In this document: positions 5,114 through 43,507 of the stretch, piece after piece | Layout: every line of letters starts with the position of its first letter | Position numbering within the stretch: the first letter of the stretch is position 1 | Assembly (NCBI GenBank): GCA_017643395.1 | Contig: JAEPNP010000003.1 | Location: 254,769-318,768, forward strand | DNA: 64,000 nucleotides | Direction: 5' to 3' | Source: Rhodothermales bacterium | Lineage (GTDB): Bacteria > Bacteroidota > Rhodothermia > Rhodothermales > UBA10348 | Translations under genes and position numbers: made by a program | Notes under the pieces: generated by a model | What the model was told of the DNA's origin: nothing | Databases searched by the model: none | Seen by the model: the letters and a program-made list of their open reading frames with translations, nothing else

Positions 5114-6055
5114 ATGCTAAAAAATGTCGTGGGGCTGTTGGGCCTCGTGATGCTCGCAGGCGGTTGCGAACCCGATTCTGCCCGCGATGTCGATCTGTCC
5201 CAGCGCACGATCCGCGTGGTGGCAACCACCTCGATGATCGCGGAGATGATTCGCGAGATCGGCGGGGATCGGGTTGAGGTCTCCGGACTCATGGGGCCGG
5301 GGGTCGATCCACATCTCTACAAGGCCAGCGAAGGGGATGTGGCCCGCATGGCCCAGGCAGATGTGGTGTTCTACAACGGCCTGCATCTGGAGGGCAAGAT
5401 GGCTGAGATCTTCGAGCAGATGGGCACGCTCGGAGTGTATACGTTCGAGGTGGCGGCTGCCGTGCCGGAGGATTCCCTGCTCGAGTCGGACTACTTCACC
5501 GGCAATTATGACCCGCACATCTGGTTCGACGCCGGCTTGTGGCGACTCGCGGCCTCCAGCGCAGCCGATTACCTGACCGCGCTGGACTCCACTTCCGCCT
5601 CCGCGTATCGAGAGCGAGCCGAGGCCTATGCGGCATCTGTGGAGGATGCACACGCATACGTCCGGTCCCGGGTGTCTGAGCTGGATCCAACGCAGCGCTA
5701 TCTGGTCACCTCGCACGACGCGTTCGGCTATTTCGGCAGGGCGTACGGCTTTGAAGTGAAGGGTCTGCAGGGCCTGTCCACCGCCACGGAGGCCGGCACG
5801 GCGGATGTCCAGGAGTTGGCTGACTATGTGGCTGAGCGCCGCATCCCGGCACTGTTCATAGAGTCCTCGGTGTCTCCTCGCGGCATTGAGGCAGTCCAGG
5901 CCGCCGTGCGCGCTCGCGGGTTCGAGGTACGCATTGGGGGCACGCTCTACGGGGACGCGCTGGGGCCGGTCGGTACCAGCGCCGATACTTACGTGGGTAT
6001 GGTGCGGTCAAATATCGATACCATCGTGAACGGCCTCCTCGGTCAGGCGCCATGA
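5114..6055 (+). CDS. Metal (Mn/Zn/Fe) ABC transporter substrate-binding lipoprotein, cluster A-I TroA/ZnuA/MntC type
   Basis: Starting at ATG 5114 (in frame with track ORF 5075) gives lipoprotein signal [20 protein letters not shown]. Family motifs: [24 protein letters not shown]. Confidence 0.9.
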
Positions 6056-31481: not shown

Positions 31482-31928
31482 ATGTCCCCCGACGCAGCCT
31501 TCAGCATGGCCGGCACCCTTGTGATGCCGTGCTGGCTCCTCCTCATCTTTGCGCCCCGCTGGTCCTGGACCACACGGCTCATCACAACCGTCGCCGTGCC
31601 GGCCCTATTGGCGGTGGCCTACATCTACTTCCTGGCCAGCGGGTTTGGAGAGACCGACGGTGGATTCGGCTCGCTCGATGAGGTGGCTACGCTGTTCTCG
31701 GACCCCCGCAACCTGCTGGCGGGCTGGTTGCACTATCTGGCGTTCGACCTCCTCGTCGGCAGCTGGATCGTGCGCGATGCGGCCCGTGTGGGGGTCAACC
31801 ACCTGCTCATCGTCCCGTGCCTGGTGCTGTGTTTCCTTGCCGGGCCGGTCGGCTACCTGCTCTACCTGTTACTGCGCGCGGGCATCAAGCGGCAGATCCT
31901 TATGGATCCAATGCCGAAAAAGGGATGA
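31482..31928 (+). CDS. ABA4-like / DUF4281 small membrane protein
   Basis: 148 aa, about 4 TM. FSMAGTLVMPCWLLLIFAPRW and LLAGWLHYLAFDLLVGSWI match what I recall as the DUF4281 signature. Confidence 0.7.
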   Translation: MSPDAAFSMAGTLVMPCWLLLIFAPRWSWTTRLITTVAVPALLAVAYIYFLASGFGETDGGFGSLDEVATLFSDPRNLLAGWLHYLAFDLLVGSWIVRDAARVGVNHLLIVPCLVLCFLAGPVGYLLYLLLRAGIKRQILMDPMPKKG

Positions 31929-35225: not shown

Positions 35226-35492
35226 ATGTTGGTGGTCATGGCGGAAGAGGAACGGACCAGAATGGCGTTCGAAGAGGTGTTTGTAATCCAAATGGGACGA
35301 TTCGTACCCATGTTGACTGTCCGGGTGGGTACCGAGACCCTGGAGAAGGGACATCCCGTGCACGGCTCCTACAAGCTGGACGGCATCCCGTTGTACGCAC
35401 TCATGGGTACCGAGTTGGAGTTGGTCCGGCTCATGGATTCCGTGCCCGAATTGCGAGTGCCTGGGCTCGAGCTCGGAGAGACGTCCGCCTAA
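35226..35492 (+). CDS. Hypothetical small protein (88 aa)
   Basis: This is the only ORF in a ~300-bp gap. No recognisable motif. It overlaps the convergent response-regulator stop by 4 nt. Weak call. Confidence 0.3.
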   Translation: MLVVMAEEERTRMAFEEVFVIQMGRFVPMLTVRVGTETLEKGHPVHGSYKLDGIPLYALMGTELELVRLMDSVPELRVPGLELGETSA

Positions 35493-36220
35493 CTCTTGTT
35501 CTTGCGGACGAACTCGGCCTCCTCGAAGGTCTTTTCGTACTCGTAGACGTCTATTTCAAAGACCCCCAGGCGCCACGCCCAGGCCACGATGGCCGGCCGC
35601 CAGCGCACTCCGCTGGCGGCCTTGAGGCGGTCTACCTGGTTGCGCACCGTGTGCTCGGACTTGAACATCTTCTCTGCAATCTGGGCATTGTTCTGCCCCT
35701 GCGCGACCTGAAGAAGAATGCGCAACAGCTTGGGAGTGATGCCGAGCTTGAGCAGTTGCTGTGTGGCGTTCTCGATCTCCTTTTCGCGATTGTGACTGTT
35801 CATCTGACGTGTCACAATCTGCTGAGAGACCCGCGGGCTGATGTAGACGCCGCCACGCAGCACTTCCTTGACGGCGTTCACGATGGTCGACAGCGACTCG
35901 TTCTTCATCACATAGCCTGAGGCTCCCGCCTCAAGCGTGCCCATGACGTACTCCGGGTCGGCATGACCGGAGAGAGGCAGGACCTTGGACTCGACACCGC
36001 GCTGATGGAGAAAACGCACCACTTCAAGCCCCGTCATAAGGGGCATGTCCATGTCGATTAGCAGGAGGTCCGGCGGGTTGGCCGTAACCAGTTCCAGCGC
36101 CTCTTCGCCATTATACGCGCGTCCAACGATCTTGAGGTTCGTCTCTCGCTCAAGCTTCATGGACACTCCTTCCATGAAGGCAGGGTGGTCGTCTGCCAGG
36201 ACAATGCTGTGGATCGACAT
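35489..36220 (-). CDS. NarL/LuxR-family response regulator
   Basis: Start taken at MSIHSIVLADDHPAF (ATG 36220, 1-nt overlap with the kinase TGA). REC: DLLLIDMDMPLMTG. LuxR HTH: NAQIAEKMFKSEHTVRNQVDRL. Confidence 0.92.
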   Translation of the reverse strand: MSIHSIVLADDHPAFMEGVSMKLERETNLKIVGRAYNGEEALELVTANPPDLLLIDMDMPLMTGLEVVRFLHQRGVESKVLPLSGHADPEYVMGTLEAGASGYVMKNESLSTIVNAVKEVLRGGVYISPRVSQQIVTRQMNSHNREKEIENATQQLLKLGITPKLLRILLQVAQGQNNAQIAEKMFKSEHTVRNQVDRLKAASGVRWRPAIVAWAWRLGVFEIDVYEYEKTFEEAEFVRKNKS

Positions 36221-39200
36221 CAGTCGGTCACTACGGGGATGGTCAACGTGAGCCGGGTACCGCTGCCGCGGGAGGATAACACCTGCAGGGTGCCTCCGGC
36301 GCGCTTGGCCCATTCATGCATGCCCAGCAAGCCAAAGTGTCGGTTCCTGGCGAGGGCCACGAGCGATGTGCTCGAGTCGAACCCGCGGCCGTTGTCGTAC
36401 ACCGAGACCTCCAGGGCGTTTCCGACTCGTCTCAGTGCCACATCCACGGCGGAGGCGGCGGAGTGGCGCGCCACATTGCCCAGGGCACTCTGCAAGACAC
36501 GATAGGCGGTAACGGCCACCGGTTCCTCCATCATGCCGACCGCTTCCAGGTCGGTCTGGACCTGGATATCCTCATGGTCCAGCTGGAAGTCCTGGCAGTA
36601 AGCGCGGAACGTGCGTTCGAGCGGGGTAGTGAGCAGGCCGGACGGCCGCAGGTTGGCGCAAATGCGGCGCAATTCTTCGATCGTGGAATCGGTGCGCTTC
36701 TGGATCTCCTCCAGCGTCTCCTCCGACCCGTCCTCATGCAGCATTTCCGCCAGGTGCCGGAACGTATACAGAGCTTGCAGCGGCCCGTCGTGGATGTGTC
36801 GCTGCAGCGTTTTTCGTTCGTCCTCCCGGCTTTCCGCAAGCGCTGTCTGTATCTCGAGCGCCTCTCGACGGCGGCGTTGCGTTCTTGTGAGGATGCTGCC
36901 TCCGACCGTGCCGAGTATGAGGCCTCCAGCCAGGAGCTGGAACCAGAGCGTCTGGATCAGCGGACGCCGCACGACTACGTCGTACAGAAAGCGGCCGGTC
37001 TGGCCGTTCCCGGCAAGCGTGCGGATCTCCAGGCGATAGGGCTCACGACGGGGCGGGATGTCGCGGAAGACCTGGCTCACCATCGACTGCCGGTATTCTC
37101 TCGGCAAATCGTCGTCGCCGTGGAGCTGGGTCCATATCCGAAGATGTTCCAGTCCGCCGAGGTCAGCCAGGGTGATGTTGGCCTCGAATTCGTAGGCACC
37201 GCGGCGGAGCTCAAGACGTGAACCCTGTAGCGTGCCGCCGGAGGCAACCAGGGTGATCTCCGGCTCTGGTGCGGGAGGAATCTCAAGGTCCGGATCGAAA
37301 CTCCAAAGGCCGTTCTCGCGGGCGGCGACCATGCGATCGCCGACACGGATGAGCTGCTTCTGGATGAATTGTCCGGCTCCATCCCTTGGGTCAGGCCGAA
37401 TGGTGCGCCATCCCATTTCCGGGCGCAGGGGATCGAAGCGTGAGGCTGCCGAGCTGCTCAGGGCCCAAATCCGACCCAGGTGGTCAGCTTCTACGGCGAT
37501 CTGCCCGCCCGGCGGGAGCCCCTGATTGGTGTCGAAAAGGGAGGATGTTTCGGATTCGGGGTCCCAGCGGAGGACGCCGCCGTCAGTGGCAGCGAAGATT
37601 TCTCCCCCGCGGGCCTCGGTTAAGTCGTTGGTGGTGAAGAATGCGCCCGCCAACGTGTCCGTCGCCCAGGGCCCCACCAAATCCCATTCGCTGCTGTCTG
37701 ACCGGGCTTCCGTAAGTCCTCCCGTACCCGGGCGTGCGTACAGCTGCCCAGACGAGTGGGCAAGCAGTTCAAGCATGTTCGCACCCGCTGCGAAGGACTC
37801 CACACTCAAGTCACGTACTATGCCGATACCCTCTCCAACGGTAGAGACAGCAATCGCACCCTGCCATGCCGCCAGGTCCATCACGCTGAAATCGGTCGGA
37901 AAGGCTCCTGCTAGGGACAGCTTCTCGATCGGGCGATCTCTCGGAATTCGGAAGAGTCCGTGCTGCGCAGTTCCCATGGTAACTGCGCCGTCTTGCTCCA
38001 GCATTGCAGTAGGTTCTCGGGGGCGCCCTTGGGACGGCTGCGGAATGGGTTCACTACGTTTGAGGTCGCCGTCGAGCGCGAGCTTTTGAATACCTTCTGT
38101 TGTGGCAGACCACAAGGTCCCGTTTTCCGACGCCGGAGCAATCGCTGTAAGGGGTGCCACGCGATACTCACGGATGGTGTACCCGTAGCGAGTTCGTGAG
38201 ACGCCACAAACACCGTTGTCTGTGGCAGCCCACAACATGCCGAAGGCATCGGCGTGGAGCTTTCCGACGTCGTCGTTGCATAAGCTCGAATCGTCGCCGG
38301 GTCGATGACGGTACTCCACCAGCCTACCCGTCTGTTGAAGGAAGACGTAGAGGCCTTTCTGGTTGCCGATCCAGAGTTCGCCGTCAGCAAGCAGGAGGTT
38401 CCAGACCACGGTGTCGGCCATTCCGGTGCCGTCGAAGGTCAGCGTCTTCAGCCGGGCAATTTCTCCGCTTGCGAGGTCAAGTCGCTGGACACCCATGCCG
38501 GAGGTCCCCAGCCATAGATATCCAGCCGGGTCGTAAACGAGGTCGTTAACGTCCAGACTGACGCCCGGTACCGATTCTAGGCCACTCAACTGACCGTCCT
38601 CCCACTTGAAGCGGATAAGCCCGGCTCCGCGGGTGCCCATGTAGACGGCTCCGTCGGGCGTGCGCACCAGCCGGGTCGGGTTCGTGGCCACTTCACTTTC
38701 TTCAACGCTGGCGAACGGCACCGGGCAGAGGCGACCGTCCCGAATCGAGATGACACCGGCGCGTGAGGTCGTCACCCAGACTTCTCCAGGAACAACGCGG
38801 TCCAGAGAGCGAGGTCGGCCGAGCTCTACTGGGATGGGATCGCAGGCTGGATCCACCGGGATCGCTGCAAGCGATCGGGTAGTCGGGTCAAGCCGAAGAG
38901 GGTGGCCGTCCAATACTGCGACGAGGATGCCCTCGTCGGTTTGGAGCAGGGAATAAACCCACGGGTTCGCAAGCAGAGAGTTGCTCTCATTGAACGTGGT
39001 CCTGACCTGCCCGCCTTCCCACTCCTGCAGGCCCTGCTTTGAGCCAATCCAGAGGCTGCCGTTCTCGGTTCGGAGTGCAACCCAGGTCTCGGGGCTTGCC
39101 AAGCCCCCCTCGACTCCGATCCGAACAAATCGATCGCCCTCCTGGGCCGCTGTTGTTGTCGAAAAAAACGGCCAGAGGAGCAGCAGGATCAGGTATTTGC

Positions 39201-39237: not shown

Positions 39238-39395
39238 CTTCCGGGTAAAAAAAGGTCATTTTTGACCACCCACAATAAGGTGAAACGACTATTCGTAAGT
39301 CGGAATGACCGGCGAGATTGGTGCAAATCGGGCCGAAAAACGAGCAATTCTGCTCTTGATTCGCTCCTCAACTCCACCAAAGCCCCCGCTGCACA

Positions 39396-39611
39396 ATGCA
39401 GGTATTCTCTCGCCTCCAAGTCCTCTGCGTCGCTGCGCTCATCGCCTTCACACTGACCGCCTGTGATTCGAATCCTGTCGGTCCTATAGACCACTCTGAG
39501 CGCGTTCAGCCAGTCGAAGAGTACGCCCCGGTTCCAACCGGTACGATTCTGAACATTGACGTGGTGGACCGTACACCCCAGGTTGCTGCGAAAGACACTC
39601 TCAACGGCTAG
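39396..39611 (+). CDS. Small lipoprotein (71 aa), unknown function
   Basis: Signal peptide plus lipobox: LCVAALIAFTLTAC-DSNPV. The post-Cys context (CDSN) is the same as in two other lipoproteins of the window. Confidence 0.5.
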   Translation: MQVFSRLQVLCVAALIAFTLTACDSNPVGPIDHSERVQPVEEYAPVPTGTILNIDVVDRTPQVAAKDTLNG

Positions 39612-39713
39612 CACATTACCCAAAGGCTGCTCGGTCCCGGCTATCACCCTCGACAGTTCCGGTGCCAGTCCGGTTGGGTTTCGCGGCCCAGTCAGGGAGG
39701 GACGAGCGGGTAA

Positions 39714-40613
39714 TCAGGTGAGCGAGTCCCCCGCGCTCTGGCGCGGGGGCATCGCCTGACTGATCTCCTTTGCCCATGACTCGAATCGAGTCATGGCGGA
39801 GAAGAGCGCAGGGCGGCATGGCAGGCTGTCACCGGAGACGGCATCCAGCCCGGCGCCCCCAAATGCGAGCCGGAATGGGGCCTGACCCGCGATGCGCTCG
39901 AGGCTCAGGCCGACTTGCCGAATTTCCGGAATCACGGGCGCAAGCGTGATAGACACGCAAACCAGGTCGGCCCGATAGTCGAGTTGTGCAGACGCGATGT
40001 CCTCGGGGGGCACGTTCAGCCCGAGGTAATGAACCTGCCAACCCAGTCTTCGCAGCACGAGCCGCGCCATCAGTGCGCCCAGTTCGTGGCCTTCCCCTCG
40101 CGCGCACGTCACGAGCGCCCGAGGTCCGAGCGTGTGCGGCAGCGCGACAGTCCGCGCGACGACGAGGTCCCGCAACAGATAGGACACCGCATGTTCGTCC
40201 GCGATGCCCATGCGGCCTTCGTGATAGGCCTGGTCGACTCGAGCCATGACACCGGCCACTACGCCGTCCAGAAACGGCCCGGCCGCTGCAGCCTGCAACT
40301 GGTGATCCAGCATGGCTAGTAGCGATCTGCCATCTCCCCCAAGGGCCCAGTAGTACGCGAGTCTGGCGAGCGCCTCAAAGTCGTCCTCCTGGTGCCGCAG
40401 TTCCTCAGCCTCGAGGTAATCCCGCAGACGGTCGCCAAAAACCGCCAAGGCGAGCCCCTCGCGACTGATCAGAGCCGCAAGGTGGCGGGGACCAATTCGC
40501 CGGTGGCCCCCGCGGGTCACTTCATGCGGTAGTTCGCCCCCGTCGCACCACCGCTTGACGGTGGACTCGTGAACGCCGCATAAGTCGGCGGCTCGACCGG
40601 TGGTGATCAGCAT
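39714..40613 (-). CDS. HTH (MerR/excisionase-type) + cobalamin-binding-domain regulator, CarH/LitR-like candidate photoreceptor
   Basis: N-terminal MLITTGRAADLCGVHESTVKRWCDGGELP...GGHRRI. Middle helical region. C-terminal Rossmann B12-binding domain ALVTCARGEGHELGALMARLVLRRLGWQVHYLGLNVPPEDI...ADLVCVSITL, with an (D/E)xHxxG lower-ligand motif. Confidence 0.8.
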   Translation of the reverse strand: MLITTGRAADLCGVHESTVKRWCDGGELPHEVTRGGHRRIGPRHLAALISREGLALAVFGDRLRDYLEAEELRHQEDDFEALARLAYYWALGGDGRSLLAMLDHQLQAAAAGPFLDGVVAGVMARVDQAYHEGRMGIADEHAVSYLLRDLVVARTVALPHTLGPRALVTCARGEGHELGALMARLVLRRLGWQVHYLGLNVPPEDIASAQLDYRADLVCVSITLAPVIPEIRQVGLSLERIAGQAPFRLAFGGAGLDAVSGDSLPCRPALFSAMTRFESWAKEISQAMPPRQSAGDSLT

Positions 40614-40624
40614 GTCGCGAAATA

Positions 40625-40658
40625 AAAAACGATCATGGTAATACGTATGATCGTTTTT
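40625..40658. promoter_or_regulatory. Perfect 12-nt inverted repeat AAAAACGATCAT-N10-ATGATCGTTTTT in the regulator/rhodopsin divergent intergenic region
   Basis: Read directly. It starts 12 nt upstream of the regulator start (40613). Two further half-site copies lie at 40763..40773 (gtgatcgtttg) and 40806..40815 (aaacgatctc), closer to the rhodopsin start. Confidence 0.55.
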
Positions 40659-40861
40659 GGGTCCGTTCGTGGCGACTAGTGGAGTAGGGAAGCGATCGCG
40701 GAGGTTGGATCGTGCGCGACGGCAGTCGACTTTTGCAACTGGATTCGTTCAGATGTGGTTCCGTGATCGTTTGTCATACCCGATAGGCTCTTGGCGAACC
40801 CGCGGAAACGATCTCTGGACGAGCCTCCACGTTGTTTTAAACTTGAATTGCGGGTCCAATC

Positions 40862-41647
40862 ATGGAGCTCCCAACCCTCACTCCAGGCGAATACAGTCTC
40901 GTCTACAACTTTTTCTCGCTCACGATCGCCTCAATGCTCGCAGCGTTCGTGTTTTTCATCATGGGTCAGTCCCGCGTGGCACCGAAGTATCGGATTTCGC
41001 TGATGGTCTCGGCCCTGGTCGTAGGTATTGCCGCCTACCACTACTTCCGAATCAGTTCCTCCTGGGCCGGAGCGTACGTGATGGCTGACGGACTCTACAC
41101 GGCCAGCGGCGCTCCCTTCAACGATGCCTACCGCTACGTGGACTGGCTGCTGACAGTGCCACTCCTGCTTGTCGAGTTGGTGCTCGTGCTGCAGCTGACG
41201 CGCGAGAAGAGCGGTCCGATGCTGACCAAATTGGTCATTGCCGCGACGGCCATGATCGCGCTCGGCTACCCAGGCGAGATCACGACGGACGTCACCGCAC
41301 GAGCCATCTGGGGTGCGCTCTCCACGGTGCCGTTCATCTACATCCTCTATGTCCTCTGGGTGGAGCTGGGCAAAGTTCTGGTGACGCAGCCGGAGCGTGT
41401 GCGCATCCTGACACGCAACATCCGCCTGCTACTTCTGGCTACATGGGGTTTCTATCCCATTGCCTACCTCGGCCCCATGCTGGGCTTCGGGGGTGGTGAA
41501 GCGGTGGTCTTCCTGCAGGTCGGCTACTCGCTCGCAGATGTGCTTGCGAAGGCCGGCTTTGGCGTCATGATCTATGCGATTGCGCGTGCAAAGTCCGATG
41601 CCGACGGCTGGGACCTGAACGCCCAGCCCGCGATCCTGCGCGCCTGA
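40862..41647 (+). CDS. Xanthorhodopsin-type light-driven proton pump (microbial rhodopsin, DTE motif)
   Basis: 261 aa, 7 TM. Helix C is RYVDWLLTVPLLLVEL (D94, T98, E105). Schiff-base Lys is in SLADVLAKAGFG (K230, counter-ion D226). It is collinear with Salinibacter XR as I recall it: LPTLTPG.YSLV, APKYRIS.MVSALVV, NDAYRYVDWLLTVPLL, LLLATWGFYPIAY. Confidence 0.95.
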   Translation: MELPTLTPGEYSLVYNFFSLTIASMLAAFVFFIMGQSRVAPKYRISLMVSALVVGIAAYHYFRISSSWAGAYVMADGLYTASGAPFNDAYRYVDWLLTVPLLLVELVLVLQLTREKSGPMLTKLVIAATAMIALGYPGEITTDVTARAIWGALSTVPFIYILYVLWVELGKVLVTQPERVRILTRNIRLLLLATWGFYPIAYLGPMLGFGGGEAVVFLQVGYSLADVLAKAGFGVMIYAIARAKSDADGWDLNAQPAILRA

Positions 41648-41660
41648 AAACCGCGATAGC

Positions 41661-42629
41661 GTGTCGTACACGACACATATTGCCTCGGGTGTTCCCGATG
41701 CGGCCATGTCCCGCCAGGCCGACTACCTCCCGGTAGTCGCTGCCCTGGCGGGACTGGCCGCATCCGGCGCCCTCGCCGGTGGACCGATCTGGACGCTCCT
41801 GCTGCCTCTGGCAGTCAGCGCCGTCTGGTTCGGACTGCCCCATGGAGGCGCAGATCACATCGTTGCTGCTGCTCTGCGCCAGCGACTCTGGGGACCCATC
41901 GCCGCCTACCTGGCAGCGATCGGTCTCTTCCTCGCAGTCTGGTGGATCAAAGCGCCTCTGGCGTTCTGGCTGTTCATCGCCATGACGGTCTTTCACTGGG
42001 GTACGGGCGATGCCCATTTCGCGATTTCCAGAGGGTGGGTGCCTCGTTTCGCGGCACCGACCTCCGCGTTGGTCAGAGGAGCGCTGCCGATGCTTGGCCC
42101 GCTGGCATTCTTTCCAGGGCGCTTTGCCGAGGTCGAGCGCGCAGCAACTTCCCTCTTTGGAGGGTCCGGGGTTGTCGCAGGTCCCATCGCCCAGATGGTT
42201 GCACTGGGGATGTTGGCGATGATCATTCTCGCGCACGTCGGGCACCTGTACCATCGAGGAGCCTTGCGGCATTCCGGGCGTGACGTGATGGAGCTGGCCG
42301 TTCTGCTGGTCCTGTTTGCTGTCGTCGATCCGCTGGTGTCTGTCGGGGTGTATTTCACGTTCTGGCACAGTGTGCGCCATCTGGACAGGCTCGGAGGCTT
42401 CTATGAGCGGAGACTGAATGGGCGCAGTCTGCTCCGGGACGTGATTCCAACCACCCTAATCTCTTTGGTCGGCATCGCTGGTCTTGCCATTCTGGTGCCT
42501 CAGACGCCCGATTCGGGGTTTGCCTTGCTGGGTGTGTACCTGGTGGCGATTTCCGCGCTCACATTCCCTCACATGCTGGTCGTCCACCTGATGGACCGCG
42601 CTGAACACGCATTTCCGTGGAACGGCTAG
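41661..42629 (+). CDS. blh: Beta-carotene 15,15'-dioxygenase, Brp/Blh family (retinal synthesis)
   Basis: Membrane protein with the four His-containing motifs of the family: FGLPHGGADH, VFHWGTGD, FTFWHSVRH, LTFPHM. It lies 13 nt after the rhodopsin stop. The GTG start at 41661 is uncertain; an in-frame ATG lies at 41706. Confidence 0.9.
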   Translation: MSYTTHIASGVPDAAMSRQADYLPVVAALAGLAASGALAGGPIWTLLLPLAVSAVWFGLPHGGADHIVAAALRQRLWGPIAAYLAAIGLFLAVWWIKAPLAFWLFIAMTVFHWGTGDAHFAISRGWVPRFAAPTSALVRGALPMLGPLAFFPGRFAEVERAATSLFGGSGVVAGPIAQMVALGMLAMIILAHVGHLYHRGALRHSGRDVMELAVLLVLFAVVDPLVSVGVYFTFWHSVRHLDRLGGFYERRLNGRSLLRDVIPTTLISLVGIAGLAILVPQTPDSGFALLGVYLVAISALTFPHMLVVHLMDRAEHAFPWNG

Positions 42630-43507
42630 AGACTTGGTATCAGGACCACTTTCTCGGTCCCGAAGCAAAGGAGCAATGGGAGCGCCGGATCGTGTGGCTC
42701 GCCATCGGCGGTTTTCTGGTGCACCTCGCGCTGATCTTCCTCACCCGGGCAGAGTGGGTAGTGCTCCCGCCTGAGTCGAGGCTTCTGGGAAGCCCCATAG
42801 CAGCCATATACACCCCGTTCTCGTTCATCTTGCTGTACGAGGTGTATCTGCTCATTTACTACCTGCCGCACTCGATCAGCACGTACATCGGCAAGCAGTA
42901 TGAGATCGTCGCGCTGATTGTCATCCGGCGCATATTCAAGGACATCTCGAACCTGGACCTGACGACCGAGTGGTTTTCAAACCCGGACGACCTGCAGTTC
43001 ACGTACGACGTCGTGTCGACCGTACTGCTTTTTGCGCTGATTCTCGTGTTCTATTGGCTGAACAAGAGGCGCCACGTCATCGAAGGGAAGGGCGGCGAGC
43101 TGACTCCGAAGCTGCAGCGTTTCATTCGCATAAAGACCGGACTTGCGATGGTGTTGATACCGGTCTTCATCGGTCTCGCAGTCTACACGCTCGGCGACTG
43201 GCTGTTGACCATCTTCTCAGACGCTTCAGTCGAGCGCAGCCTCTACGATCTGAATACCATCTTTTTCGATGAGTTCTTTTCGGTGCTGATCGTGACCGAT
43301 GTGCTGTTGTTGCTGGTTTCGCTGATTCACACGGACCGCTTCCGCAAGGTGATCCGCAACTCCGGGTTCATCATTTCCACCATCCTGATCAAGCTGTCCT
43401 TCAGTGCCGTGGGTCTGTTGAATGCGGCGCTGACTACGGCAGCGGTGCTGTTCGGAGTGCTCATTCTTGGCCTTCACAACCTGTACGCCCGACTTGAAAA
43501 TGACTGA
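42617..43507 (+). CDS. Polytopic membrane protein of unknown function, overlapping the blh stop (rhodopsin operon member?)
   Basis: 296 aa, about 7-8 hydrophobic segments, one of them charged and amphipathic (YEIVALIVIRRIFKDISNL). The start overlaps blh by 13 nt. It is locally less GC-rich than its neighbours. Confidence 0.7.
   Translation: MERLETWYQDHFLGPEAKEQWERRIVWLAIGGFLVHLALIFLTRAEWVVLPPESRLLGSPIAAIYTPFSFILLYEVYLLIYYLPHSISTYIGKQYEIVALIVIRRIFKDISNLDLTTEWFSNPDDLQFTYDVVSTVLLFALILVFYWLNKRRHVIEGKGGELTPKLQRFIRIKTGLAMVLIPVFIGLAVYTLGDWLLTIFSDASVERSLYDLNTIFFDEFFSVLIVTDVLLLLVSLIHTDRFRKVIRNSGFIISTILIKLSFSAVGLLNAALTTAAVLFGVLILGLHNLYARLEND

Follow-up and report, generated by a model that had tools for sequence, protein, structure and literature searches.

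A cobalamin-binding-type regulator with a variant tyrosine cap and candidate palindromic operators, divergent from a xanthorhodopsin–blh operon in a Rhodothermales genome

We report that in a member of the Rhodothermales (NCBI GenBank assembly GCA_017643395.1) the gene for a regulator with a cobalamin-binding domain is located back-to-back with the genes for a xanthorhodopsin-type (XR) proton pump and a retinal-forming enzyme. The locus lies in a 64,000-nucleotide stretch of contig JAEPNP010000003.1 (positions 254,769 to 318,768 of the forward strand; hereafter the window, with coordinates counted from its first letter). Comparative analysis places the regulator in a branch of the B12-photoreceptor superfamily and identifies a probable operator in the shared intergenic region; judged from the sequence, light sensing by the regulator and its control of the rhodopsin genes are plausible. 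The features are the following:

39714..40613, minus strand: regulator, 299 aa; open reading frame (ORF) with Pfam HTH_17 and B12-binding matches
40614..40861: divergent intergenic region, 248 bp, with both candidate operators inside; the promoters are presumed to be here
40625..40658: O1, perfect inverted repeat AAAAACGATCAT-n10-ATGATCGTTTTT with 12-nt arms, 100% complementary
40690-40697: further half-site copy AAGCGATC
40745..40770: O2, TCGTTCA-N12-TGATCGT, 12/14
40806..40813: putative lone half-site AAACGATC, ~50 bp ahead of the rhodopsin start codon
40862..41647, plus strand: XR proton pump, 261 aa; match to 3DDL
41661..42629, plus strand: Blh/Brp beta-carotene 15,15'-dioxygenase (retinal-forming), 322 aa; TIGR03753 and PF15461
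42617..43507, plus strand: multi-pass membrane protein, 296 aa; ORF for which no family was matched in Pfam or NCBIfam

A preliminary description, made from the sequence alone, had proposed a xanthorhodopsin–blh operon separated from a divergent regulator gene by an AT-richer region of 248 bp, and this arrangement holds. The intergenic region is exactly 248 bp with a GC content of 0.512, which is below that of the regulator gene (0.66) and of the 64-kb window as a whole (0.626). The rhodopsin matches the Salinibacter xanthorhodopsin (3DDL) with E=3.8e-94; it has the residues D94-T98-E105 (DTE) and the Schiff-base K230, and its G151 occupies the carotenoid-pocket position Gly156 of Salinibacter XR. 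The blh product scores 180.1 bits with TIGR03753 (cutoff 95.25) and 182.7 bits with PF15461 (cutoff 28), and its gene starts 13 nt after the rhodopsin stop. The start of the membrane-protein gene, which lies beyond the stretch covered by the preliminary description, and the stop of blh overlap by 13 nt (translational coupling), so that this gene probably closes an apparent xanthorhodopsin–blh–membrane-protein operon (40862-43507). Homologues of its product (33-40% identity) flank the closest XR genes among the metagenomic loci discussed below (L016 1219-2091, L018 10-375 and L095 6810-7613, all on the minus strand), and on sequence the family looks like an uncharacterised rhodopsin-linked membrane protein family.

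The regulator is identical to an NCBI entry annotated merely as 'cobalamin-dependent protein' [Rhodothermales bacterium] and consists, as had been read from its sequence, of an N-terminal helix-turn-helix (HTH) and a C-terminal cobalamin domain. Specifically, HTH_17 (PF12728) covers residues 3-51 (33.3 bits, cutoff 27) and is followed by a four-helix bundle (residues ~55-157) and a Rossmann cobalamin-binding domain (CBD) at residues 165-255 (B12-binding, 52 bits, cutoff 32.1), while B12-binding_2 is sub-threshold at residues 91-146 (18.1 bits, cutoff 23). The canonical MerR models stay below their cutoffs (PF00376, 23.0 bits against 28.2; PF13411, 18.6 bits against 21.6), NCBIfam BldC is sub-threshold at 27.6 bits, and the NCBIfam CarH equivalog NF052513 gives 61.6 bits with a cutoff of 400. 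The recognition helix, HESTVKRWC, does not conform to the canonical MerR RxWERRY. Using phmmer, the best PDB sequence match was CtMerR of Chloracidobacterium thermophilum (8JBS; E=1.2e-13 over residues 4-255, HTH included) followed by TtCarH (~1e-11). An AlphaFold2 model built on 32 relatives (pLDDT 92.8, pTM 0.89) has the four-helix bundle and Rossmann fold of the corrin sandwich; the top 50 fold matches in a Foldseek search against the PDB are all TtCarH or CtMerR, and the modelled CBD superimposes on that of CtMerR with a TM of 0.80 (3.2-3.5 Å).

CtMerR is an experimentally validated adenosylcobalamin (AdoCbl) photoreceptor, and the authors of that work set GxxW, EH, GxxH and GxxxP as the light-response signature (PMC11796333). 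CarH homologues are defined by two signature motifs together, and the Trp of one of them, Wx9EH, is considered 'absolutely conserved'; in CarH both the binding of AdoCbl and the packing of the head-to-tail dimer depend critically on it (PMC8156234). In the regulator the last three elements of the CtMerR signature are present (E140-H141; G173-E-G-H176; G198-L-N-V-P202), as is the classic B12 motif (E174-G-H176-E-L-G179, x41, S221-I-T223, x28, G252-G253), of which the last spacer is one residue beyond the quoted range (D/ExHx2G/P-x41-SxT/V-x22-27-GG). The GEGHELG segment noticed earlier contains the lower-axial ligand, conserved as His176 in the alignment. HMMER alignments to TtCarH and CtMerR place the Wx9EH equivalent at QAYHEGRMGIADEH, i.e. 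Tyr130-x9-Glu140-His141, where Y130 is at the position of TtCarH W131 and the next residue, H131, is at the bis-His position of TtCarH; the GxxW position reads D127-Q-A-Y130, with Trp replaced by Tyr and Gly by Asp. The preliminary description had cautioned that Wx9EH did not appear intact, and the Trp is indeed missing, but the degenerate copy that it pointed to (AYYWALGG...LDH, residues 86-104) was the wrong segment and is rejected on the same alignments. Nor is W89 a relocated compensatory Trp, since it is as frequent in Trp-type relatives (74 of 127).

Without the defining Trp and without a canonical MerR DNA-binding domain (DBD), the regulator is not a CarH in the strict sense of the published definitions; the NF052513 score and an operator other than direct repeats (see below) were further grounds for rejecting CarH proper. 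The earlier label "CarH/LitR-like" therefore stands for the B12-photoreceptor fold, the ligand His and the EH pair, and not for Trp, DBD, family model or operator. The regulator is a member of a CtMerR-like HTH_17–CBD branch of the B12-photoreceptor superfamily, with a variant Tyr cap. AdoCbl binding, photochemistry and oligomeric state are discussed below as what would be expected of such a protein.

Using a word index we collected 52 homologues, of which 32 (36-43% identical to the regulator) were used for alignment. All 32 have GxxY-x9-DEH, E[VG]HELGALM and YLGLNVPTE, and Y130, D139, E140, H141, E174, H176, G198 and P202 are invariant, with Trp instead of Tyr in more distant relatives, CtMerR and TtCarH. 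An exhaustive profile search over 1.84 billion representatives gave 201 clusters at E<1e-30, and among the best 150 of these the Trp together with the full signature is present in 127 and Tyr in 17. Two residues beside the pocket, both present in the window regulator, covary with the exchange: Arg148 is found in 100% of Tyr-type vs 10% of Trp-type proteins, and Arg172 in 76% vs 3%, Trp-type proteins usually having Glu at the latter position. This covariation suggests a remodelled upper-face pocket or dimer interface. In a neighbour-joining (NJ) tree, which is crude and has no support values, the main Tyr clade is nested among Trp-type relatives, while the regulators of two XR loci described below (L024 and L027) form a third, deeper Tyr branch. 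As far as these alignments tell, the Tyr is a lineage trait and not a sign of decay. A filter based on GxxW (PMC11796333) would exclude the Tyr clade because it requires the Trp.

The missing Trp is also the basis for the main rival explanation, in which the regulator acts on the locus through O1 and O2 without being a photoreceptor. The upper-face pocket would then have been altered by the Trp-to-Tyr and Gly-to-Asp exchanges and the clade-specific Arg148 and Arg172, and the protein would be B12-independent, bind another corrinoid (e.g. photolysis-derived hydroxocobalamin) or sense B12 status, and any light signal would reach it via a partner such as an antirepressor or an ECF-sigma cascade (ECF, extracytoplasmic function). 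The precedent is Myxococcus xanthus CarA, a B12-independent protein that retains the B12 motif and EH but has lost the Trp (PMC9304148); the GxxW signature (PMC11796333) is likewise absent from the regulator, and both the Arg residues that covary with Tyr and the ECF sigma factors that are frequent partners in the clade (see below) fit such a scheme. However, in CarA the Trp was deleted together with four flanking residues, whereas the regulator has a conservative aromatic swap with the Y-x9-EH spacing exact, the Tyr is invariant in the 32 relatives, and the clade is nested among relatives with the full Trp-type signature. Moreover, the genomic context of the clade, to which we now turn, is strongly related to light and UV. 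We regard this explanation as unlikely, though to be taken seriously.

The sampled loci, mostly contigs of metagenome-assembled genomes or metagenomes, repeatedly place Tyr-clade regulators near genes of this kind. A DNA photolyase gene is directly downstream of the regulator in L008, and a photolyase-like/FAD-oxidoreductase fusion (a photolyase-like flavoprotein) is encoded near it in L003, L005, L006 and L009; in the first three of these loci, genes for PTPS and a SOUL haem-binding protein are also found, oriented divergently to the regulator gene. L007 has GTP cyclohydrolase I, L009 Dps/ferritin and L097 haem and protoporphyrin (tetrapyrrole) genes; neighbours in L002, L098 and L099 (ABC/FtsX, SDR, Omp85) were uninformative. 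These neighbourhoods resemble the CarH/LitR regulon and, as their genes are typical of light responses, they support a light-related role by analogy despite the Tyr. The commonest neighbour of Tyr-clade regulators is an ECF sigma factor gene, usually divergent (L001 11180-11848; L004 9028-9843; L010 273-965; L096 4933-5610; L097 5127-5867); in the window there is none within ±10 kb.

The intergenic region contains two related palindromes. The O1 core, ACGATCA-N12-TGATCGT (40629-40654, 14/14), begins 15 nt from the regulator ATG, while O2 lies 92-117 bp upstream of the rhodopsin ATG with its right arm adjoining a TTGTCA hexamer; the distance between the two centres is 116 bp. At a threshold of at least 12/14, O1 and O2 are the only copies in the 64 kb (2 observed vs 0.36 expected with at most two mismatches). 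The motif was taken from the window, and an independent test was therefore made in other loci, i.e. nine non-redundant Tyr-clade loci from species-representative genomes. A match of at least 11/14 is present within 200 bp upstream of the regulator in eight of the nine, with 10 matches in 1890 bp of upstream sequence compared with 18 in 138.8 kb elsewhere (41-fold, P=2e-13; reached in 0 of 1000 shuffles), and raising the threshold to at least 12/14 gives a 147-fold enrichment (P=6e-12). Of four additional loci three have the motif, and in L024 and L027 it directly adjoins the start of the regulator gene. Overall, 13 of 15 independent related loci have ACGATCA-N12/13-TGATCGT upstream of their regulator gene, and O1 and O2 are probably the operator of the regulator.

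Several of these loci have paired sites, with a start-to-start distance of 62-63 bp in L005 (9906/9968), L008 (9837/9899), L096 (5742/5804) and L099 (5858/5921), 116 bp in the window (40629/40745) and 126 bp in L010 (958/1084). Distances of 62, 116 and 126 bp each come near a whole number of turns of the helix, and the 264 bp in L001 fit less well. In the dark CarH and CtMerR form tetramers, built as dimers of dimers, and by analogy a single oligomer may bind the two palindromes together on one face of the DNA. The regulator-proximal site often has a -10-like hexamer in its spacer or adjoining it (TATAAT in L008, TATACT in L099), from which we infer that the regulator would repress its own gene by promoter occlusion.

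The direction of control bears on a further possibility, that the regulator is a light-dependent activator which remodels the rhodopsin promoter in a MerR- or BldC-like manner when lit instead of repressing it in the dark. HTH_17 does resemble the BldC/excisionase type of MerR-like domains and the location of O2, -92 to -117 from the ATG, is more typical of an activator site; but all characterised B12-photoreceptor regulators are dark repressors (PMC8156234), and the -10-like hexamers in or adjoining the regulator-proximal sites are what occlusion predicts. We consider activation very improbable.

The operators may also serve the regulator's own promoter, and possibly distant targets, with the rhodopsin operon being independent and its adjacency simply resulting from the order of genes or from a mobile XR cassette having inserted there. 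Paired sites are indeed found upstream of the regulator whatever the divergent gene, and the perfect site, O1, adjoins the regulator and not the rhodopsin. Set against this, there is a second site on the rhodopsin side both in the window (O2) and in L001 (at 9577, ~50-77 bp from the XR ATG), and where a divergent intergenic region is short, a pair of sites cannot but cover the promoters of both genes. The distribution of the gene pair, considered from both of its sides, bears on the same question.

From the regulator side, a rhodopsin gene is present in the flanks of two of 14 non-redundant loci (the window and L001). From the rhodopsin side, we surveyed 80 metagenomic loci of XR type, 61 of which have at least 1.2 kb of upstream sequence, and an HTH–CBD regulator is located directly upstream and divergent in three of the 61 (L024, L027 and L017). 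The L024 and L027 regulators are HTH_17 proteins of Tyr type, and these two loci have a cassette in common with L001, i.e. regulator ⇄ XR – lycopene cyclase – blh, in which the cyclases are 45% identical and the regulators 28-37% identical to each other and to that of the window. In L017 (4436-5845, minus strand) the divergent gene encodes a canonical MerR_1 + B12-binding_2 + B12-binding protein with GAGW-x9-EH, and the XR is 64% identical to that of the window. This CarH-like protein has an extra C-terminal extension of ~150 aa, and its intergenic region (5846-6000) has a perfect TTGACA-17-TATTAT promoter toward the rhodopsin, followed by repeated TGTACA elements. Two other XR genes have an adjacent MerR_1-HTH protein (L019 565-1524, minus strand; L053 4991-5944, plus strand) with a C-terminal domain of ~240 aa that has no Pfam match and a common CECP(R/N)(N/H)LA motif; these may be another class of rhodopsin-linked regulator.

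The adjacency for which the preliminary description had suggested a survey does recur, in L001, L024, L027 and L017, but as a minority arrangement. For rhodopsin genes that are independent of the regulator speak L016 and L018, the closest XR loci (72% identity), which have the membrane-protein gene upstream instead and neither regulator nor operator, and the comparison of the window with L001, where the XR proteins are 75% identical and the regulators only 37%. Yet divergent pairing in at least three deeply separated regulator lineages is far above the expectation for two single-copy genes. Because the pairing recurs across deep divergence and in two regulator types, it argues for functional coupling where it occurs, and we find it quite unlikely that the operators serve only the regulator. 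A regulon over XR genes in general, acting in trans, was rejected, as the operator is only at background frequency upstream of XR genes that have no adjacent regulator.

Taken together, we propose that the regulator is an AdoCbl-dependent repressor, released by light, that binds O1 and O2 and gates its own gene together with the XR–blh–membrane-protein operon; we give this a probability of roughly 0.5. In the dark the regulator would carry AdoCbl, with His176 as the ligand below and Tyr130, Glu140 and His141 as the cap above, and would oligomerise via the B12 domains and bind O1 and O2, 116 bp or ~11 helical turns apart. Occupancy of the two sites would repress the regulator's own promoter, as proposed because O1 is 15 nt from its ATG, as well as the divergent operon. 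Light, from UV to green, would cleave the Co–C bond and loosen the oligomer, with His131 available for a bis-His light state like that of TtCarH; the operators would be vacated, and the pump and the retinal-forming enzyme would be made only in the light. In this model the effect is presumed to be repression and not activation, and O2 is presumed to govern the rhodopsin promoter.

A number of observations weigh against this reading. The Trp deemed absolutely conserved in CarH (PMC8156234) is a Tyr in the regulator, and its loss is a mark of the B12-independent paralogue CarA, in which the B12 motif and EH persist (PMC9304148). The regulator is on a long branch of its own in the NJ tree with at most 43% identity to any relative, and it is the only protein seen with Asp at the Gly128 position, where Tyr-clade relatives have GxxY. 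There is no rhodopsin beside 12 of the 14 relatives and no such regulator beside 58 of the 61 XR genes, and upstream of the 80 XR genes, those of L024 and L027 excepted, copies of the operator are no more frequent than background. Finally, O2 lies 92-117 bp from the rhodopsin ATG and may or may not overlap a promoter: a scan of 40614-40861 with the sigma-70 consensus gave no promoter match, and a search by eye of the intergenic region for Bacteroidota-type -7/-33 elements placed no promoter.

The wider proposition, that Tyr-type HTH_17–CBD proteins are functional B12 photoreceptors and join XR–(lycopene cyclase)–blh in a phototrophy cassette that is complete in itself and gated by light, the pump and the enzymes for its chromophore being switched on only in the light, we put forward tentatively, as possible though somewhat doubtful. 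Expression of proton-pumping rhodopsins is reportedly induced by light in several bacteria, for which, to our knowledge, a sensor has in general not been named. If its gene lies back-to-back with that of the pump and its operators in the shared promoter region, a B12 photoreceptor would provide a concrete and readily testable mechanism and, if true, would explain directly, at the molecular level, how light regulates the pump in some rhodopsin phototrophs. It would add retinal phototrophy to the outputs of B12 photoreceptors, beyond photoprotection by carotenoids and photolyase, and would tie retinal phototrophy to the availability of vitamin B12. It would also mean that the defining Trp may be a Tyr, such that published sequence filters miss a clade, and the palindromic operator would be the first DNA target for the CtMerR-like branch. 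A compact green-light switch with a known operator would, moreover, be of use in optogenetics.

Elsewhere in the 64 kb no crt, cob or other photoreceptor genes were found, the rest consisting of housekeeping genes, transporters and two-component systems, and the window has no cobalamin riboswitch or other RNA family at gathering thresholds. About 8 kb away from the rhodopsin locus there is a gene (window ~31482-31928, plus strand, corresponding to L014 18686-19132) for an ABA4-like protein of 148 aa; its family, PF14108, is related to neoxanthin synthesis in plants, a possible link to carotenoids. Between the regulator stop and the start of a gene for a 1005-aa Reg_prop/HisKA_3 histidine kinase there is a 476-bp gap of lower GC (39238-39713, GC 0.51-0.57), in which gene callers place no gene and no Rfam match was obtained; a gene for a LuxR-type response regulator (35489-36313) follows that of the kinase.

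Among known systems, CtMerR (8JBS/8JBT; Yu et al., FEBS J 2024, PMC11796333) has the same combination of an HTH_17-type DBD, four-helix bundle and Rossmann CBD, as well as EH, GxxH and GxxxP in common with the regulator. The two differ in that CtMerR has GxxW where the regulator has DxxY, and an Arg after the Trp where the regulator, as TtCarH, has His. The DNA target and regulon of CtMerR are unreported in PMC11796333, and the window locus supplies a candidate operator and candidate target genes for this branch. With class I CarH/LitR proteins (TtCarH 5C8D/E/F, MxCarH, BmCarH/LitR) the regulator has in common the logic of a DBD joined to an AdoCbl domain, the fold, the ExHx2G His, the EH cap, the His after the aromatic residue, the location of its gene beside light-protective or light-using genes and a likely autoregulation from an adjacent operator. 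Unlike these it has an HTH_17 DBD with no RxWERRY winged helix, and Tyr for Trp; CarH binds tandem 11-bp direct repeats (nAnnTnnACAn) and targets crt genes, whereas here there is a palindrome with a 12-13-nt spacer and the candidate target is a rhodopsin/retinal operon.

CarA, the B12-independent CarH paralogue of M. xanthus, is similar in having the classic B12 motif and EH but no Trp. It differs from the regulator, where the change is invariant and preserves the spacing, in the loss of flanking residues, and it has a canonical MerR DBD and the antirepressor CarS. The LitR–LitS system of Streptomyces and CarQ-type ECF circuits have their counterpart in the relatives with an adjacent ECF sigma gene (L001, L004, L010, L096 and L097), unlike the window, where the divergent partner is the rhodopsin operon itself. 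The preliminary description was aware of no characterised case of CarH-type control of a rhodopsin operon. In a full-text library that lacks most subscription journals we likewise found no account of a rhodopsin gene with a regulator of the CarH/LitR/CtMerR type as its partner, the matches being optogenetics reviews or unrelated papers. The nearest literature case is a MerR-family regulator before crtI in proteorhodopsin-containing Flavobacteriia (Sediminicola YIK13, PMC4732338); there, too, a regulator is tied to the supply of carotenoid for retinal, but it is located by the crt genes with PR–blh elsewhere, while in the window, L001, L024 and L027 it is directly divergent from the rhodopsin. 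The sensor class is thus already known, and what is new is the variant cap residue, an operator of palindromic form, previously undescribed for the CtMerR-like branch, and the module that would be its output.

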